Shown here: positions 12,447 through 21,289 of the stretch, piece after piece | Layout: each line of letters starts with the position of its first letter | Numbering within the stretch: position 1 is the first letter of the stretch | NCBI GenBank assembly: GCA_020060465.1 | Contig: JAGVAD010000005.1 | Location: forward strand, 46,003 to 110,002 | DNA: 64,000 nt | Source of the DNA: Anaerolineales bacterium | GTDB taxonomy: Bacteria > Chloroflexota > Anaerolineae > Anaerolineales > UBA4823 | Direction: 5' to 3' | Notes under the pieces: model-generated | What the model was told of the DNA's origin: nothing | The model's input: the letters and a program-made list of their open reading frames with translations, nothing else | The model's database searches: none | Made by a program: the position numbers and the translations under genes

Positions 12447-13691
12447 CTAGCCGCCATAGGCGCGCACCACCAAAACGGAATTATGACCGCCAAATCCAAA
12501 GGCGTTGTTCAGCGCGACGCTGACTTTCACTTCACGCGCCTGGTTGGGGACATAATCCAGGTCGCAGCGCGGGTCGGGGGTTTGGTAATGGATGGTGGGA
12601 GGCAGGCAACCTTCACGCACCGCCTGCACACAGAAGATGGTCTCCAGCGCGCCGGTGGCGCCCATCATGTGACCCGTCATAGACTTGGTGGATGAGACTG
12701 GAATGTGGTACGCTTGTTCGCCCAGGGCGGCTTTGATCGCCCTGGTTTCAGAGATGTCGTTTAATTCGGTGGCGGTGCCGTGGGCGTTGATATAGCCCAC
12801 GTCTTCGGGGTTCAGATGGGCGGATGCCAGTGCATTGCGGATCGCCGCCGCACCGCCGGAACCGTCCTCCGCTGGGGCGGTGATGTGATAAGCGTCGGCA
12901 GTGGCGGCGTAGCCGGCCAGTTCGGCCAGGATCTCCGCCCCGCGGCGGCGGGCATGGCTTTCCCGCTCCAGCACCAGCACTGCTGCCCCTTCGCCCATCA
13001 CCAGCCCGTCGCGGTTCAGGTCGAAGGGCGCGGGGGTCATCGAATAATCCTCGTTGCGGCGCGACATCGCCCCCACTCGATCAAAGGTGGCCACGCCAAT
13101 CTCGGTGATCGTAGCCTCGCTGGCCCCGGCGATGGCAGCGTCTATCGCCCCCGCCTTGAGCATCATCCAGGCCATGCCAATGCCATCCACCCCCGACGCG
13201 CAGGCCGAAGCAACCGAAAGGCTGGGTCCCCGGAAGCCGTAATCAATGGACACCATGCCCGCCGCCCCATTGGACATCAGCATGGGGATGGCAAAAGGGC
13301 TGATGCGCCGCGGGCCCTCGTTGAGCAGGGTCAGCAAGCTGTCTTTGGTGGCGCTGATCCCGCCAATGGCTGATGAAATCACTACGCCCACACGCGCCGG
13401 GTCTATTCCATCCGCCTGCAAGCCAGATTGTTGAATGGCTTCGCGCGCTGCGGCAGCGGCAAACTGTTCAAAGCGGTCGCGGCGGCGCGCATCCTTGGCT
13501 TCCATGAAGTGTTCGGGCTGGAAGCCTTTCACTTCGCAAGCGATGTGAACCGCAAGGCGGCTGGAATCAAACAGGGTGATCGGTCCAACTCCAGAAACGC
13601 CGTTGACTGCACTACGCCAGCTCTCTGCCACGGACAGCCCCAACGGGTTGACAGTCCCCATGCCGGTAATGACAATGCGTTCTTCCACCAT
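12447..13691 (-). CDS. fabF: beta-ketoacyl-ACP synthase II
   Basis: RIVITGMGTVNPLG, active-site SACASG, HGTATELND and GFGGHNSVLV are present. The start is at ATG 13691, preceded by GGAGG. Confidence 0.9.
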   Translation of the reverse strand: MVEERIVITGMGTVNPLGLSVAESWRSAVNGVSGVGPITLFDSSRLAVHIACEVKGFQPEHFMEAKDARRRDRFEQFAAAAAREAIQQSGLQADGIDPARVGVVISSAIGGISATKDSLLTLLNEGPRRISPFAIPMLMSNGAAGMVSIDYGFRGPSLSVASACASGVDGIGMAWMMLKAGAIDAAIAGASEATITEIGVATFDRVGAMSRRNEDYSMTPAPFDLNRDGLVMGEGAAVLVLERESHARRRGAEILAELAGYAATADAYHITAPAEDGSGGAAAIRNALASAHLNPEDVGYINAHGTATELNDISETRAIKAALGEQAYHIPVSSTKSMTGHMMGATGALETIFCVQAVREGCLPPTIHYQTPDPRCDLDYVPNQAREVKVSVALNNAFGFGGHNSVLVVRAYGG

Positions 13692-13783: not shown

Positions 13784-14878
13784 TCAGGCGGGCGCTTTCA
13801 AACCGGAACCGGTCAGCACAACCACAATGGGCTGCGGAAGTTGTTCAGCGAGTTGTTCCAGGGCGTTCCACACGATCGCCGAGGTGGGCTCCACATAAAA
13901 CCCCAGCCGAGCTAATTGTTCACGGCCTGGCAAAATATCCGCCTCCTCCACGGCGGTCAAAACACCTTGCTGCCCGGCGATCATTTGCATCACGGCGTCG
14001 CCGCGCACAGGCTGGCGCACGCGCACTCCCTCAGCCAGCGTTTCGCTTTCGGTCACCCAGCCCAGACCAGCCGCCCCATAACGATACAGCGCCCATAACG
14101 GAGCGCAAGCCATGGCCTGGACGCCGACCAGGCGCGGCAGGCGTTGGATCTGCTGGCTGCGCAACAAGCTCTCAAAGCCGCGCCCAAGAGAGAGCAGCAA
14201 ATTGCCCTGCCCCACCGGAAGGATCACTGCCCCCGGCGCAGCGCCAAGTTGTTCGACCAACTCGTATGCCAGGGTGGCATAGCCGGGAAGGACGTACGGC
14301 AGGTAGGCATGGCTGGCATAGACTGCGCCCTGCTCCACGGCGCGCAAAACCGCTTGAGCGGCGTTGGAGCGCGGTCCCAGGATGCGCACGACCTCCGCTC
14401 CATAAGCCTGGATCTGGCTGCGCTTGGGCGCGGAAGTTGCGTCGGGCGCAAACACCTTCGCCCGGATGCCAGCTACAGCGGCATAGGCAGCAAACGCCGC
14501 CCCGGCGTTGCCGGACGAATCTTCCACTGCGGCTTGCACGCCGCGCCAGTGCAGAAAGCTGATCAACGTCGCCGCCCCGCGATCTTTGTACGAACCGGTC
14601 GGGTTGAGGAATTCCAGTTTGAAAGCCACCTCTCTGCCGAAGACGTTGCGCCACACCAGCGGGGTATTCCCTTCGCCCAGGGTGATCTGCGGCGCGTCGG
14701 CGGGCAGCCCCAACGCGTGACGGTAGCGCCAGAGGCCAGGCTGGTTCTTTTCAACCTGAGCCGGATCGAAGGCGGGCATTTCGGCGAAATCGAACAACCC
14801 GCCGCAAGCCGGGCAGCGATGTGGAACACCCTGTTCGGGATAGGAACGGCGACAATTGGTACAACGGATTTCGGTCAA
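13784..14878 (-). CDS. thrC: threonine synthase-like PLP enzyme with N-terminal zinc ribbon
   Basis: It has a CTNC...CPACGG ribbon and the PLP-lysine motif FLNPTGSYKDRGAA. The first ~48 codons of the tracked ORF overlap moaE out of frame and are Arg-rich junk, so the start is assumed at the TTG at 14878 (uncertain). Confidence 0.7.
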   Translation of the reverse strand: MTEIRCTNCRRSYPEQGVPHRCPACGGLFDFAEMPAFDPAQVEKNQPGLWRYRHALGLPADAPQITLGEGNTPLVWRNVFGREVAFKLEFLNPTGSYKDRGAATLISFLHWRGVQAAVEDSSGNAGAAFAAYAAVAGIRAKVFAPDATSAPKRSQIQAYGAEVVRILGPRSNAAQAVLRAVEQGAVYASHAYLPYVLPGYATLAYELVEQLGAAPGAVILPVGQGNLLLSLGRGFESLLRSQQIQRLPRLVGVQAMACAPLWALYRYGAAGLGWVTESETLAEGVRVRQPVRGDAVMQMIAGQQGVLTAVEEADILPGREQLARLGFYVEPTSAIVWNALEQLAEQLPQPIVVVLTGSGLKAPA

Positions 14879-14915
14879 TGCCTGCTCAACCAGGAGAAAC
14901 GAGGGCTCAAAGGAG

Positions 14916-15626
14916 TCAATCCTGAGGGCTGGGGATGTAATCGCCCTCCACCCATTCCTCGCCCTGCGCCCCGACTTCCTTCTTCCACACCGGCACGATC
15001 TCTTTGAGGCGGTCAATGCCATAGCGCGCGGCTTCGAAGACTCCGGTGTCGCGGTGCGCTGCGGTGCAGGCGATCAGCACCGTCGGCGTGCCGGGGTGCA
15101 GTACGCCGATGCGCTGCACGATGGCGATGCCCTCCACGCTCGGCCAGCGGGCGCGGATTTCTTCCGCCACCTGGCGCATCTTGGCCTCCGCCATTGGCTG
15201 ATAGGCTTCGTATTCCAGGTAAAGGGTCTCGTGTGGTTGGTCGCGGCGGGTGACGCCGCGCACCATGCCGGTGAAGATGCAGGCCGCGCCGGTGGAGGGC
15301 AACGTGATGCGCGCCAGCAGATCATCCAGGTCGAGCGCCTCTTCGGTGATGGCGAAGAAGGTCGGGAATTCAGGCGGCGCGCCGCCGCTGACCGGTGGGA
15401 AGACTGCCGCCTCTGCCCCGGCGGGCAGCAGGTCGTCATCGAAGGCGAACTGGCGGTTGACCGAGACCAGCGCCGTATCCAGCGCCGGAGCCAAAGCGGG
15501 GTACTCCTCCCGCAAACGGCGCTTCAAATCGGCCACGCGCGCCTGATCGGGCATCTCCAGCGTTGCTTGTTTAGTGCCGGCGCGCTCGCGCAGGGTGGCG
15601 AAAAATAAGACAGTAATCTGGTTCAT
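14916..15626 (-). CDS. moaDE: molybdopterin synthase MoaD-MoaE fusion protein
   Basis: The N-terminal 82 aa are MoaD-like and end in FPPVSGG. This continues directly into a MoaE domain (ACIFTGMVR...LEYEAYQPMAE...PVWKKE). AGGTGG lies upstream of ATG 15626. Confidence 0.8.
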   Translation of the reverse strand: MNQITVLFFATLRERAGTKQATLEMPDQARVADLKRRLREEYPALAPALDTALVSVNRQFAFDDDLLPAGAEAAVFPPVSGGAPPEFPTFFAITEEALDLDDLLARITLPSTGAACIFTGMVRGVTRRDQPHETLYLEYEAYQPMAEAKMRQVAEEIRARWPSVEGIAIVQRIGVLHPGTPTVLIACTAAHRDTGVFEAARYGIDRLKEIVPVWKKEVGAQGEEWVEGDYIPSPQD

Positions 15627-16173: not shown

Positions 16174-16574
16174 TGGCACAGGCTGAAGTCTGTGCTACCT
16201 GGTCACAGGCTAAAAGCCTGTGCTACTTGGTCACAGGCTGAAGCCTGTGCTACTTGGTCACAGGCTAAAAGCCTGTGCTGTGCTACCTGGTCACAGGCTA
16301 AAAGCCTGCGCTACTTGGTCACAGGCTAAAGCCTGCGCTACTTGGTCACAGGCTAAAGCCTGCGCTACTTGGTCACAGGCTAAAGCCTGCGCTACTTGGT
16401 CACAGGCTAAAGCCTGTGCGCTACTTGGTCACAGGCTAAAAGTCTGTGCTACTTGGTCACAGGCTAAAGCCTGCGCTACTTGGTCACAGGCTGAAGTCTG
16501 TGCTACCTGGTCACAGGCTAAAAGCCTGTGCTACCTGGTCACAGGCTAGTGGCACAGGCTTAAGCCTGTGCTAC
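16174..16574. repeat. tandem array of ~15 copies of a 27-28 bp hairpin unit (consensus TGGTCACAGGCTAAAGCCTGYGCTACY)
   Basis: Read directly from the sequence. There are 12 full TGGTCACAGG units of 27-33 bp, one truncated unit, and terminal TGGCACAGG variants, with no spacers. Each unit contains the palindrome CACAGGCT-(2-3 nt)-AGCCTGTG. Confidence 0.9.
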
Positions 16575-16619
16575 GCGAGTAGGGCGATTCGTTCGTCAGC
16601 AGCAGTAGCGAGATCAGGC
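16575..16619 (-). pseudogene. relic of the cysW 3' end next to repeat array 1
   Basis: Both array ends read GCCTGTGCTACGCG. The stretch CAGCAGCAG(TAG)CGAGATCAGGC at 16597-16619 matches cysW 20492-20511 (20 nt, one 3-nt insertion) at a similar distance from the array. Confidence 0.5.
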
Positions 16620-16642
16620 TTTATTTCCCAGGTGCAAGGCAT

Positions 16643-16753
16643 TTGCGCCACGGACGGGTTGCTGCGCTTGCCGCGTGCTGCTTGCTTGAAAGCCGCATAC
16701 AGATTGATGAAAGAGGTGATTTGAGGATAGAGGTTGTCGAAGCGTTTGGTCAT
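16643..16753 (-). pseudogene. N-terminal remnant (~37-45 codons) of a DGR/group-II-type reverse transcriptase
   Basis: MTKRFDNLYPQITSFINLYAAFKQAARGKRSNPSVAQ matches the conserved RT N-terminus pattern (K/R-R-x-x-N-L-[YFW]-x-x-I-x-S-[FW]-x-N-L-x-x-A-[FY]-x-x-A-x-[KR]-G-K-R). The reading frame then runs into the cysW relic and array, and no RT motifs 1-7 are present. Confidence 0.6.
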
Positions 16754-16791
16754 GCACACCAGCCGAAGAAAAAACCTGCCGCGTTTAACCG

Positions 16792-16812
16792 CTGGGGGGC
16801 GCAGCCCCCCAG
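16792..16812 (-). other. GC-rich hairpin (9-bp stem, 3-nt loop) between the VR-bearing gene and the RT remnant
   Basis: CTGGGGGGC-TGC-GCCCCCCAG on the minus strand has a perfect stem. A T-run (GGTTTTTTCTT) lies ~17 nt further downstream. Confidence 0.5.
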
Positions 16813-16861
16813 ACCCCCCTCAGAAACCAGACTCCAGCCGCCAGCAGCCAGAAACCAGCAT

Positions 16862-19834
16862 TCAGTATTCTGCCAGGGACAACACCACCCGGAACCCGAT
16901 GTAGTTGAGGAAGAGGTTGAGCGGATAGTACCTGCCGCGGTAGGCGCAGCGGGCGTCCTGTGGATGGGCGTTCCACGAGCCGCCACGCATCACCCGAGCG
17001 CCATCCGCTTGCAAGTCGTTGCGTCCATCCTCCGCGTGATAGGGGTATGGTTGGTAGAGGCTGAGTGTCCATTCCCAAACGTTGCCGCTCATATCAAGCA
17101 CATCGTAGGGGCTGGCGCCTTTGGGAAAGATGCCCACCGGCGAGGTCTGTTCGAGTTGGGTTTCGCTGTAATTGGCATGCTCGGGGGTGATGCGGTTGCT
17201 GCCCCAGGGATAGATGCGCCCGTCCGCGCCGCGCGCCGCTTTTTCCCATTGCGCCTCGCTGGGCAAGGAGAAACTTTCAGGGCGCTGCGCCGCTAGCCAG
17301 AAGGCGCGCTGCTCTGGAGAGAGGTCGTCCCGCGCCAGGTATTGTGAGCTAAGCGAGGCTAATTTCTCGCCCAGCCAGCGGCAGTAGGCCAACGCTTCAT
17401 ACCAGCTTACCCCCATCACGGGGCGGGTCAGCGCTCCCCCTCTGGCATCTCCCCAATCGTACGGCTGGCTGCGGTTGTTCCTCTGCTGCCAGTCCCAGCC
17501 CGATTCCGGCGGTGTCCAATATCGCCGCTCATCGTAGCCATGCTCGGCGATGAAGTGGGCGAATTGGGCGTTGGTAACCGGGTAACGGCTGATGTAGAAA
17601 GCGGGCAATTCCAGGGTGTGTGGGGGCTTTTCGTCGTTATCCGCCTGCTTGTCATTCTCGGCGCTGCCCATCCGAAATGGCCCGGCAGGGATATACACAA
17701 AGCCCAGGGTCGGTTCTGGCCGGGTGCGGTAAAATGCCGGCAGGCTGAAGGTCTTTTCGTCGAAGCGCGGGTCGCCCAGAGCGGCCAGGGTATCGCCCGC
17801 GCGGGCGCGCAGGGCAGCCGGCGCGTTGCATGCCGGGTCGGTGAGCGCGGCTTCCAACTTCCCCGCCAGTTTGCGGCGAATGGCTGGATCCGGTCGTTCA
17901 ATTTCCAAGACGGCGGCGCCCGCCAGTTCCAATCCCCCCAGTTGCAGCGCTCCCTCGCCGCGCAGATTCGAGAGCCAGTCGAGATACTTTTGGGCGAAAG
18001 GGGCATAATCCTGTTTGGCGAAGCCGTATATCAGCAACAGCGCCTCGCGCCACCAGGAATCCAGCACATAATCCCGCAGCAAGCCCAGCGATAGCTCGCG
18101 GTCTTTGGCTAACCGGCGCGCCGCCAGGAACTCCTGAAAGGTCAAATGGGCGAACTGGAAGAGTTCAGCGCGCTCTTCCAGTAATCCACCGCGGCTGCGC
18201 ACCGCTTTGATAAATTGATCCAACCTTTCTTTCGGCAGTTGAACGCTCAAGATTTCCCGCAAACGCGCTTCATCAACGGCAGCCCCGTTTTCCCCGTTGC
18301 GGTGCATTTCGAGCGCCAAATAAGCAAGCCACTCACGCTGTTCTTCCCAGGGGCCTCCCCAGTTGATCAATTCCTGACGGGCAGTATCCTCCTCCAGGTA
18401 TTGCGCCTGTAAGATGACCCGAACGACCGCTTCGTACAGGCGCGCCCGTTCGCGCGGCAATTCGGCCTCGCCCCATTTGACGCCGATCACCATGGTGGTC
18501 AACAAGGGTGTGCTGATCAGCGGGGGTTGATTTTGCCGTTCGTAGCGCTCATTGATGGTTCGAATAACAGAGGTAATGTCGGCAACCTGCGCCTCAACCT
18601 GAGTGGGGAACAATTGTTCACACCACCGACGCGCCAGATATTCGATTTGGTCGTCCTTCAGCTTGCACACATCCAGGCGGATAAAATCTTCGCTGAAGAT
18701 GGCGTTTTCTTTGTAGCCCGATTCACGTGCCGTGACGATGAACAGATTTCGCGGATAGATTTCGTTCGCCAGACGCTCGATTTCTTGGCGCGCCTGGCCG
18801 CGCTCTTCCTGGCTGACCACTTCATCCAGCCCATCCAACATCACCAGACAACCCCCGCCCACCAGCAGACGGTCAAAAAATTCATCCGCCAGGTCTTCAT
18901 CCGCTGTTTGGATCGCCTGGCTGCGTTTCTTGAGATACCATAAAATGAAACCCGCCAATGTCCCTGAACGCACTTTGGTAAGCACCTGGTCGGGCGACTC
19001 ATGGCACAGGCGCATGTATTCGCGCCGATAGCGCAGAGGAATGACCAGCGGCACCAGGGCGCGTCTCTGACTGGGCAAGTCGAAAGGCAGCGCCGTCTGG
19101 TGCAACGCATGGTCGGCTAATGAAGAAGCCAGAAAGGCCAGCAGGGTGCTTTTGCCGCTGCCCGCGCCGCCGATGATTGCCAGGCGGTCGCCCAGGGTCA
19201 GCATCTCCTTGAGGGCGATTTGTTCGCCTTCTGTTTGCCGCCTCTCGATTAATCGCAAAAAGGCTTTTTGCTCGGCGAATGGGTCGTCCTTGAATTTTTC
19301 TTGGGCCAGCTTTTCCACTTCGCTGCGCGCTGGCGGCGAAAGACGTTGCAAGGTAATGGGCACAAAGACGTCCGCCAGATTGCGCTTCTTGCGTTCTCCA
19401 GAGCGGCCCCACCCTTCCAAACCATACAAACGAGCCTGTCCAAAGGCTTTCTGCGCCCAGACGAAATAATCATACAGCAAACGCCGGAAGTCATCTTCCG
19501 ACATGCGCGGTTTGCCAGGCGGCGTCTGGAAAATCTGATACAGCACGACCCCGGTGTTGAGCCAGGAATGACTGACGGTTCCGCCGCTTGCAATTCCAGC
19601 ATTGTTTGCGTGTGTATTTGGCGCAGATTTCTCGCTCCGTCGGCTCAAGAACCAGAAGACCCCCGAAGCCAGCGACCCAATTGCCCACAGGATAGAGAGG
19701 AATGCATCTGCGCTCTGGATTAGCTCGCCGCGCGCGCCAAGAAAATTCATCAACGGCCGCCAGCCCAACCAGGTAACGATTGCCAGCAGCGCCAAAACGA
19801 GGGTGGTTCGTAGATAAGCCGACTTGTTTTTCAT
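16862..19834 (-). CDS. membrane-anchored NACHT-domain STAND NTPase with C-terminal FGE-sulfatase (SUMF1/DUF323-type) domain
   Basis: 990 aa. Two N-terminal TM helices are present. The NACHT domain shows Walker A IIGGAGSGKSTLLAFLA, Walker B CLVMLDGLDEV and the FIVTARESGY region. The last ~279 aa (nt ~16865-17701) are FGE-type (FVYIPAGPFRMGS...YPVTNAQF...MSGNVWEWT...RVMRGGSW...GFRVV). GGGAGG lies upstream of ATG 19834. Confidence 0.85.
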   Translation of the reverse strand: MKNKSAYLRTTLVLALLAIVTWLGWRPLMNFLGARGELIQSADAFLSILWAIGSLASGVFWFLSRRSEKSAPNTHANNAGIASGGTVSHSWLNTGVVLYQIFQTPPGKPRMSEDDFRRLLYDYFVWAQKAFGQARLYGLEGWGRSGERKKRNLADVFVPITLQRLSPPARSEVEKLAQEKFKDDPFAEQKAFLRLIERRQTEGEQIALKEMLTLGDRLAIIGGAGSGKSTLLAFLASSLADHALHQTALPFDLPSQRRALVPLVIPLRYRREYMRLCHESPDQVLTKVRSGTLAGFILWYLKKRSQAIQTADEDLADEFFDRLLVGGGCLVMLDGLDEVVSQEERGQARQEIERLANEIYPRNLFIVTARESGYKENAIFSEDFIRLDVCKLKDDQIEYLARRWCEQLFPTQVEAQVADITSVIRTINERYERQNQPPLISTPLLTTMVIGVKWGEAELPRERARLYEAVVRVILQAQYLEEDTARQELINWGGPWEEQREWLAYLALEMHRNGENGAAVDEARLREILSVQLPKERLDQFIKAVRSRGGLLEERAELFQFAHLTFQEFLAARRLAKDRELSLGLLRDYVLDSWWREALLLIYGFAKQDYAPFAQKYLDWLSNLRGEGALQLGGLELAGAAVLEIERPDPAIRRKLAGKLEAALTDPACNAPAALRARAGDTLAALGDPRFDEKTFSLPAFYRTRPEPTLGFVYIPAGPFRMGSAENDKQADNDEKPPHTLELPAFYISRYPVTNAQFAHFIAEHGYDERRYWTPPESGWDWQQRNNRSQPYDWGDARGGALTRPVMGVSWYEALAYCRWLGEKLASLSSQYLARDDLSPEQRAFWLAAQRPESFSLPSEAQWEKAARGADGRIYPWGSNRITPEHANYSETQLEQTSPVGIFPKGASPYDVLDMSGNVWEWTLSLYQPYPYHAEDGRNDLQADGARVMRGGSWNAHPQDARCAYRGRYYPLNLFLNYIGFRVVLSLAEY
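16877..17000 (-). other. DGR-type variable region (VR) at the 3' end of the NACHT-FGE gene
   Basis: This 124-nt segment is homologous to 20026-20146, with identical 27-nt and 24-nt flanks. In the core, 13 of 15 substitutions fall on adenines of the other copy. It encodes [33 protein letters not shown]. Confidence 0.75.
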
Positions 19835-19850
19835 CCATACCTCCCAGAAT

Positions 19851-19890
19851 GCCTCCGCGCCGCGCTCTTGCAGAGACAGGGCGCGGAGGC
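19851..19890 (-). other. 11-bp perfect stem-loop just upstream of the NACHT gene RBS
   Basis: GCCTCCGCGCC ...18 nt... GGCGCGGAGGC. The loop contains a further CTCT/AGAG pairing. The structure ends ~5 nt upstream of the GGGAGG RBS on the transcribed strand (~16 nt upstream of the ATG). Confidence 0.5.
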
Positions 19891-20025
19891 GGTTGGATAT
19901 TCGGCCGGGCGTCGCCTCGCCAGGGGCAAACGCCGCGACCAGGGGCTGACCAGGCTGGCAAAGTTTCTAACGCTCCGTCCCGCCTCTGTAAAGGTTGGGA
20001 TTTACCGGCGTTTTCATTTCGCTAT

Positions 20026-20146
20026 GGACAACACCACCCGGAACCCGATGTTGTTGTTGAAATTGTTCGGATTGTTCCTGTTGCGGTAGGCGCAGCGGGC
20101 GTTCCGTGGATTGTTGTTCCACGAGCCGCCACGCATCACCCGAGCG
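20026..20146 (-). repeat. DGR-type template repeat (TR), Asn-codon (AAC/AAT) rich
   Basis: This 121-nt copy of the VR reads [32 protein letters not shown]. It lies inside a 77-aa TTG-started ORF (20014-20247) that lacks the rest of an FGE domain and has no RBS. Confidence 0.75.
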
Positions 20147-20259
20147 GTGTGGGTCAGTCCCTGCAAAGCTGCGGCGCAAAGCCGCGGATTGCTCGATTGA
20201 TGTGGCATCTGTCGCTTCCAGCCGCGCTGGATCGCGAGTTTTCCCAATCGTTATTCACT

Positions 20260-20288
20260 ATTGTAGAATAATTTGTAGAGGATGGCAA
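20260..20288 (-). promoter_or_regulatory. candidate sigma70-type promoter reading toward TR and the NACHT gene
   Basis: The minus strand reads TTGCCA (20288-20283), a 17-nt spacer, then TACAAT (20265-20260), within an AT-rich patch. Tandem AAAATCCGTTG direct repeats lie just upstream. Confidence 0.4.
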
Positions 20289-20366
20289 CGGATTTTCAAC
20301 AACGGATTTTTATAATGGAGAGCATTCGGATGGTTTTCCACTCATAGAGGGGAATTTGATCTGAAG

Positions 20367-20447
20367 TGGCACAGGCTTTAGCCTGTGCTACCTGGTCACA
20401 GGCTAAAAGCCTGTGCTACTTGGTCACAGGCTAAAAGCCTGTGCTAC
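20367..20447. repeat. second array (3 units) of the same hairpin repeat, same orientation as array 1
   Basis: TGGCACAGGCTTTAGCCTGTGCTACC, TGGTCACAGGCTAAAAGCCTGTGCTACT and TGGTCACAGGCTAAAAGCCTGTGCTAC. The cysW stop codon (20444-20446) lies inside the last unit. Confidence 0.9.
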
Positions 20448-21289
20448 GCGGGATTGCGCTCTTTGCGGCGCATCCAGTCTGCGCCCATCACCAGCAGCAG
20501 CGAGATCAGGCCCAACACCAGGGCGGCGCTGTAGGCGCCGATGTACTGGCGTTCATCCAGCGCTCGATAGATGTACAAGGTGGCGGTTTCGGTGCGCCCC
20601 TGGATGCCTCCACCGATCACCAACACCGCGCCGAACTCGCCCAGGGCGCGCGCCAGAGTCAGCGTCACGCCGTAGATGAAGCCCCAGCGCAACGCCGGCA
20701 GGGTCACCCGCCAGAAGGTCTGCCAGCCGCTGGCGCCCAGGGTGGCGGCGGCCTGCTCTTGCTGTACGCCGAAGTTCTCTAAGATGGGGATCAGTTCGCG
20801 CACCATGAACGGCAGGGTGACAAACAGGGTGGCCAGGATCATACCTGGAACAGCGAACGCCACGCGGATGTGAAGCGCATCGAGCAGAGGCGCAAACAGT
20901 CCATTGCGTCCGAAGAGCAGCAGCAGCATATAGCCCACCACCACCGGCGAGACGGCGAAGGGCATGTCTATCAAGCCGTTGATATACTTGCGCCCCGGAA
21001 AGCGGTCGCGCACCATCACCCAGGCGACAATGACGCCAAAGACGCTGTGAACCGCGACCACGATGGCGCTGATTTGCAGGGTGAGCCAAAAGGCTTTGAG
21101 CACCTCCGGCTGCGACAGCGTCTCCAGCGCCGCCCCCAGGCCCTCTCGGAACGCTCCGCTCACCAGGGCAACGATGGGCGCCAGGATCAACACCCCCACA
21201 TAGAGAGCCACCGCTCCAATCAAGAGCCAACGCACCCAGCGGTTGCTGGCCGGTGTGGGACGGGTCGTTTTGTTGGTATTGAGGTTCAT
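20444..21289 (-). CDS. cysW: sulfate ABC transporter permease CysW
   Basis: 281-aa 6-TM permease. The EAA-loop region ARALGEFGAVLVIGGGIQGRTETATLYIY resembles CysW. Its start overlaps the cysT stop by 4 nt. Confidence 0.8.
   Translation of the reverse strand: MNLNTNKTTRPTPASNRWVRWLLIGAVALYVGVLILAPIVALVSGAFREGLGAALETLSQPEVLKAFWLTLQISAIVVAVHSVFGVIVAWVMVRDRFPGRKYINGLIDMPFAVSPVVVGYMLLLLFGRNGLFAPLLDALHIRVAFAVPGMILATLFVTLPFMVRELIPILENFGVQQEQAAATLGASGWQTFWRVTLPALRWGFIYGVTLTLARALGEFGAVLVIGGGIQGRTETATLYIYRALDERQYIGAYSAALVLGLISLLLVMGADWMRRKERNPA

Follow-up and report, generated by a model that had tools for sequence, protein, structure and literature searches.

The prototype of the DGRs is the element of the Bordetella phage BPP-1 (bRT-Avd-TR-Mtd). 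In multicellular bacteria, including filamentous Chloroflexi, DGRs diversify NACHT/STAND-lectin 'sensor' proteins (Dore et al. 2024, PMC10907252; Kaur et al. 2020, PMC7159879). Degenerate elements are also on record: the survey of Wu et al. 2018 dropped more than half of its candidate DGRs because of truncation, premature stops or a poor match between TR and VR (PMC5758913).

Here we describe a chromosomal locus of this degenerate class in a 64-kb stretch of DNA, referred to below as the window. Its features are collected in Table 1. Two elements expected of a DGR are found, namely an adenine-biased TR/VR pair and the position of the VR in a C-terminal domain of the C-type-lectin/FGE fold. The reverse transcriptase (RT) and the accessory protein Avd, two defining DGR features, are absent, and the locus is therefore best described as a recently inactivated DGR, composed of an RT pseudogene stump and an orphan TR/VR pair. 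The segment that we call the RT remnant is what one 1,841-bp microhomology deletion spared of a now dead DGR RT gene, namely its 5′ end; we put the probability of this reading at about 0.93.

Table 1. Features of the inactivated DGR and its surroundings (window coordinates)
Feature	Position	Strand	Evidence
RT remnant: DGR reverse transcriptase codons 1-36, MTKRFDNLYPQITSFINLYAAFKQAARGKRSNPSVA	16646..16753	-	nt identity, HMM, PHROG, PDB
Non-RT tail of the fused ORF: codons 37-60 and TAG	16571..16645	-	aligns to L001 15028-15100; ORF listing
Deletion junction: one retained copy (CGTGGCGC) of the 8-nt direct repeat CGTGGCGG	16645..16652	-	BLAST overlap, alignments, repeat positions
DGR target, intact, 990 aa: N-terminal region, NACHT NTPase, C-terminal FGE-sulfatase (C-type-lectin fold) with VR	16862..19834	-	Pfam
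VR, 124 nt: last 41 target codons, 3-nt insertion relative to TR	16877..17000	-	direct repeats D3, D4; alignment
TR, 121 nt: AAC-rich, upstream of target, one private C->T relative to six relatives	20026..20146	-	direct repeats; alignment
Downstream array: ~14 tandem 27-28-nt hairpin units (CACAGGC-loop-GCCTGTG + 9 nt), between remnant and moaC	16177..16570	.	TRF, regex
Upstream array: ~3 units, directly after the true cysW stop, left bracket of the cassette	20366..20447	.	TRF, 2.4 copies
cysW 3′-end relic: degenerate duplicate of the last cysW codons and TAG	16571..16620	-	alignment; ...CGCGTAG + hairpin ending in common with cysW

The stump ORF behind the target gene

The stump lies in an open frame at 16571..16759(-), with an in-frame ATG at 16753 and a TAG at 16571-16573; the 60 codons from the ATG read MTKRFDNLYPQITSFINLYAAFKQAARGKRSNPSVAQMPCTWEIKPDLATAADERIALLA. 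This ATG begins 108 nt past the last base (16862) of the stop codon of the NACHT-FGE target gene, on the same (-) strand, and both the 108-nt distance and the quoted peptide of the original prediction, which had been made from the sequence alone, proved exact.

The peptide had been recognized there as the N-terminus of a DGR RT, and four lines of evidence bear this out. The profile PHROG_1423 'Reverse transcriptase' matches residues 1-36 of the stump peptide (E=6.7e-6), and the sole match in a PDB search is the DGR RT of Bordetella phage BPP-1 (8ub7), with residues 1-31 aligned onto residues 1-31. As an independent test, an N-terminal HMM (70 aa) was constructed from 37 distant DGR RTs, which came from the genome scan described below and are 55-70% identical to the ortholog; run against 1,233 six-frame segments of the window, it matched the stump alone (E=3e-15, model positions 1-38; runner-up E=0.9). 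The match to the N-terminal segment of DGR RTs is hence significant and in register with residue 1 of the known enzymes. At the nucleotide level, the 108-nt remnant is 100% identical to positions 13079-13186 of the metagenomic relative L001, the start of an intact 357-aa RT; the first 115 nt from the stump ATG are 100% identical to the L001 RT start, and 36/36 remnant residues agree. Neither Pfam RVT_1 nor NCBIfam yielded a match to the stump. Since RVT_1 spans residues 72-286 of the intact 357-aa RT and thus begins only at residue 72, this silence on a 36-codon stump is expected and uninformative, so that of the profile checks suggested for the peptide, RVT_1 behaved as it should and the DGR RT model recovered it.

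The remnant stops ahead of all RT finger and palm motifs. In agreement with the original prediction, these motifs, including YxDD, are missing, as the remnant ends at codon 36 and RVT_1 starts at residue 72. The similarity had been estimated to end after about 40-45 codons; the partial nature of the RT holds, but its length is corrected to 36 surviving codons. The interval first assigned to it, 16619-16753, comprises the 108-nt remnant and 27 nt of fused downstream DNA. Beyond codon 36, the ORF reads through DNA that in the relatives is intergenic and follows the gene for TCAD2 (L001 TCAD2 stop at 15003). The frame was also correctly seen to run into a cysW-like relic and then into the hairpin array: the relic matches cysW at 22/24 nt, and the stop lies at the first hairpin.

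The existing annotation treats this ORF as a genuine small gene for an acyl-CoA-binding protein. It has an ATG and stays open for 60-62 codons, it is also listed at NCBI, its JGI product name is 'acyl-CoA-binding protein', and there is a weak Pfam ACBP (PF00887) match. This match, however, misses the cut-off (12.7 bits against a gathering threshold of 28.3 bits, E=0.15), and the stump protein is a singleton among 5.8 billion clusters; the 60-aa peptide, too short for a database of that size, matched itself alone in a search of 5.8 billion proteins. Codons 1-36 are the start of an RT, and in seven relatives the DNA that encodes the remainder lies between genes. The chance that the ORF is a real ACBP gene is negligible. 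The name is a misannotation of a pseudogene, and the 60-aa ORF should be flagged as an RT pseudogene, not as ACBP.

Intact relatives, deletion breakpoints and flanking arrays

Relatives of the locus were found via the 90% cluster of the target protein, which holds five other members, and by looking up the contigs of these members. Seven relative loci were obtained from JGI, ENA and Logan metagenomes (L001-L006 and L087), all with 97-99% nucleotide identity to the window and the same gene order. Target and RT are present in 7/7 relatives, Avd and TCAD2 in the six with longer reach, and moaC in the four that reach furthest; the L087 contig ends inside the RT gene. In the relatives, cysT-cysW-TR-target is followed by genes for proteins of the RVT_1 (357 aa), bAvd (111 aa) and TCAD2 (151 aa) families and then by moaC-moaD/E-thrC-fabF, although not every contig spans all of these genes. 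The best PDB match of the 357-aa protein is the BPP-1 bRT (1.2e-47); it hits RVT_1 at 2.1e-16 (aa 72-286) and has a YVDD motif, and its neighbours match bAvd (1.8e-22) and TCAD2 (2.8e-12). It is a genuine DGR RT. The syntenic comparison that had been proposed thus finds the intact RT directly after the target in the seven relatives.

A full-length paralog sharing this N-terminus had also been asked for. Among 185,579 species-representative genomes, the intact RT has no match above 70% identity, so a near-identical copy was not found there, whereas intact orthologs exist in the seven metagenomic relatives. Among genomes, the RT comes closest to those of Anaerolineae MAGs, with ≤70% identity, and, judged from these RT relatives, the host apparently belongs to a filamentous Chloroflexota (Anaerolineae) lineage.

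A full-length DGR RT with RVT_1 and YxDD is thus present in the seven relatives and absent at the window locus. Likewise, tblastn of the relatives' RT, Avd and TCAD2 against the 64-kb window returned the 36-codon stump only, and Avd, present in the relatives, is absent here. Comparison with L001 defines what was lost. By BLAST, window positions 20447..16646 are collinear with L001 9390..13186, and the window from 16652 onward is collinear with L001 from 15021 onward; the two segments overlap at 16646-16652, and the 1.8 kb between the two collinear blocks is present in L001 and absent in the window. The repeat CGTGGCGG occurs twice in the intact relatives, at RT codons 35-37 and 18 nt past the TCAD2 stop (L001 13180 and 15021), with a spacing of 1,841 bp in each of the six relatives whose contigs cover both copies (L001-L006). 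Aligned base by base, the 8-mer is common to the sequence within the RT gene (...AACCCGTCCGTGGCGG/CTTTTGAA...) and to that past TCAD2 (...TATAAGGCGTGGCGG/AAATGCC...), and the window displays a single copy (16652..16645) followed by AAATGCC. Missing from the window is exactly 1,841 bp, the distance between the direct repeats, that is, RT codons 37-357, the whole of Avd, the whole of TCAD2 and the short post-TCAD2 stretch up to the second repeat. With the RT intact in seven relatives and the breakpoints mapped to the base, the proposal that an RT gene once lay next to the VR-bearing target and was then deleted is directly supported.

In our reading, the ancestral arrangement persists in the close relatives: cysT-cysW-(hairpin array)-TR-NACHT/FGE target with VR-RT-Avd-TCAD2-(cysW relic + hairpin array)-moaC. 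A single 1,841-bp deletion between the two CGTGGCGG repeats then took place in the lineage of this genome. It joined RT codon 36 in frame to intergenic DNA, and the resulting ORF of 60 aa, which is without meaning, ends at the first hairpin. The geometry of the repeats is a matter of observation; from it we infer replication slippage or microhomology-mediated illegitimate recombination, of which it is the signature. As CGTGGCGG is found in the TR and the VR as well, RT-mediated off-target recombination was also considered; it was dropped as unsupported, an 8-mer of such composition being expected by chance several times per 64 kb by our estimate.

Could the assembler instead have dropped the RT-Avd-TCAD2 segment, either by collapse of the hairpin array or by a chimeric MAG join? 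The region is hard to assemble, with two near-identical tandem arrays flanking the cassette and copy numbers that vary by assembly, and the junction sequence had 0 exact matches among JGI metagenome contigs, so that the deletion allele is known from one assembly. The junction, however, sits outside the array, in unique sequence ~75 nt upstream of the first hairpin, and array collapse is therefore no explanation. The breakpoints have just 8 nt in common, far below any assembler k-mer, and collinearity with the relatives is perfect on both flanks. In addition, private changes of the window lineage (the TR C->T, the VR indel and a G->C at the junction) fit a distinct, real haplotype. Of the assembly errors against which the original prediction was to be guarded, array collapse does not account for a junction in this position, and an artefact of any kind is very unlikely, which leaves a small doubt about the deletion.

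The relic and the arrays have a history of their own. TRF places the downstream array at 16177-16548 (period 27, 13.3 copies), and the relic at 16597-16620 agrees with cysW 20489-20512 at 22/24 nt, with an alignment score of 38 compared with a shuffle mean of 14.6 (sd 2.5; z ~9.5). Relic and downstream array are also found downstream of TCAD2 in intact relatives (the relic was seen in L001 and L004); they are thus older than the deletion and were not caused by it. Within the 64-kb window, the hairpin unit is confined to the two arrays, each of which follows a cysW 3′ end. The cassette is accordingly bracketed by an old direct duplication of the cysW 3′ end plus array (window 16177-16620 and 20366-20512; L001 9201-9468 and 15021-15253). 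Upstream and downstream copy numbers are ~3 and ~14 in the window and ~10 and ~3 in L001, with L004 intermediate, and they differ in every relative; relic copies number two each in L001 and L004 and one in the window. The bracketing duplication may be a scar left when the cassette was inserted or duplicated, perhaps marking how such cassettes move. An empty site (cysW-array-moaC lacking the DGR) was sought by a cysW scan of metagenome contigs and was not found. As the best cysW relatives there are 75% identical and never have moaC, RT or target nearby, the scan is silent on how the cassette arrived. Comparison with Rfam, for the region as well as for the entire window, gave no match to a known RNA family, and a promoter and terminator scan gave nothing above chance. 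Elsewhere in the window, a long same-strand run of large ORFs (including 1771, 1101, 847 and 734 aa) extends over 28669-55040(-), downstream of sulfate-transport and two-component genes.

TR, VR and target in intact and deleted strains

The target protein matches Pfam FGE-sulfatase at 2.6e-59 (aa 712-984) and NACHT at 1.1e-11 (aa 217-406), and the pseudo-ORF of the TR matches the end of the FGE-sulfatase profile (3.7e-7). Apart from a 3-nt gap, TR and VR are distinguished by 15 substitutions, 13 of them at TR adenines and 2 at non-A positions. One of these two is the C->T in the window's own TR, the other a G->A in the VR; intact relatives have 0-1 non-A mismatches. The 3-nt insertion falls in an AAC-repeat stretch of the VR (an AAC AAC run) and could equally come from slippage in the last round of reverse transcription. 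The original prediction took the small indel and the non-A mismatches as fitting the loss of the RT. This part is weakly supported, for the indel may be RT slippage and two mismatches against 0-1 are too few.

The TR is invariant across six relatives, even though the flanks differ by up to ~2%, and the C->T private to the window TR (AAC->AAT) lies in the 20065 region. This change is consistent with lost constraint on the TR once the RT had gone. Two further sequence elements were seen in and around the target. Some 65 nt beyond the VR, in the gap that separates the target stop from the RT start, lies a perfect G6-CTGCG-C6 hairpin (16794-16810); it may be a target-site hairpin as some DGRs need for homing, or a terminator. 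A stretch of the target at 19550-19615(-) (aa 74-95) and the L001 TCAD2 gene (14548-15003) may carry a candidate homotypic interaction motif of sensor and partner.

In the intact strain, the element is demonstrably active in nature. Outside the VR, the targets of L001, L002 and L003 show 0 differences in 2,826 nt, but each of the three has a VR of its own (L001 12835-12955; L002 and L003 8835-8955), and these VRs deviate from the invariant TR at adenines only. The window VR, a single sequence, still has the ancestral C at the site of the TR's change to T, and it exceeds the TR in length by 3 nt. Hence, no TR-to-VR transfer has taken place since those changes, and the VR looks frozen at its last variant. 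Devoid of RT, the element would be unable to copy its TR into mutagenised cDNA.

The substitutions in the target give another hint of decay. On the window branch, the part of the target outside the VR has 10 nonsynonymous and 5 synonymous private changes. The corresponding counts are 4:14 in the flanking moaC, moaDE, thrC and fabF (Fisher p=0.015), and on the L001 branch the target itself has 14:28 (p=0.035). This excess, counted on 15 substitutions, suggests relaxed constraint after the loss of RT, Avd and TCAD2, and the NACHT-FGE sensor, deprived of its diversifier and its TCAD2 partner, appears to drift. Alternatively, a recombination tract or positive selection may explain why 9 of the 10 nonsynonymous changes cluster within aa 56-256.

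The locus would still be a working DGR if the RT and Avd of another DGR elsewhere in the genome acted on its TR in trans. TR and VR are intact, as are the DNA that separates them and the target ORF, and several related DGRs are often found per genome in multicellular bacteria (PMC10907252). The 64-kb window, however, has no second RT or Avd, and no RT more than 70% identical was found among the 185,579 species-representative genomes, a scan that a more distant second DGR would escape. The surplus length of the VR and the uncopied TR C->T also argue against transfer since these changes arose, and the nonsynonymous excess of the target suggests relaxed constraint. We thus regard action in trans as improbable and keep to the description of the locus as inactivated.

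The deletion may also have been selected as a 'lock-in', by which one VR specificity was fixed or a costly immune module silenced while other members of its natural Anaerolineae population went on diversifying the sensor. We hold this to be doubtful. If it were true, an on/off polymorphism of a hypermutating sensor would be a population-level strategy.

Comparison with known systems

DGR decay is common, and the present case, real and well resolved, is ordinary in kind and not a new kind of system. Its value is that of a base-resolved example of chromosomal DGR inactivation, in which one deletion took the RT, Avd and the TCAD2 partner. With sister strains intact and active, it offers a natural matched pair, diversifying versus frozen, for asking what role DGR-diversified NACHT sensors play. 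In turn, the TR/VR pair of the window should not be counted among active DGRs.

With the BPP-1 element, the ancestral cassette shares a bRT-related RT (1.2e-47) and a protein of the bAvd family, and the locus shares TR/VR mismatches specific for adenine and a variable domain of the C-type-lectin/FGE fold at the C-terminus of the target. In contrast to BPP-1, it is chromosomal and not phage-borne, its order is TR-target-RT-Avd-TCAD2 and not target-avd-TR-brt, and its target is a NACHT NTPase fusion and not a tail fibre; moreover, the window physically lacks Avd and any RT past codon 36.

By analogy with the STAND/NACHT-CLec 'antigen sensor' loci (PMC10907252, PMC7159879), the ancestral cassette is a DGR that diversifies a putative NACHT/STAND-lectin sensor. 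As in those loci, a central NACHT module is combined with a DGR-diversified C-terminal lectin/FGE domain, and a neighbouring gene encodes the Pfam 'ternary complex associated domain 2' (TCAD2), which is present in the relatives and deleted here. The window copy differs from them in having neither the diversifying machinery nor the TCAD2 gene. With the degenerate DGRs of Wu et al. 2018 (PMC5758913), the locus has in common a truncated RT with TR and VR retained. Unlike in those cases, the intact ancestor, the exact breakpoints and the microhomology were recovered here, so that the inactivating event itself is documented.
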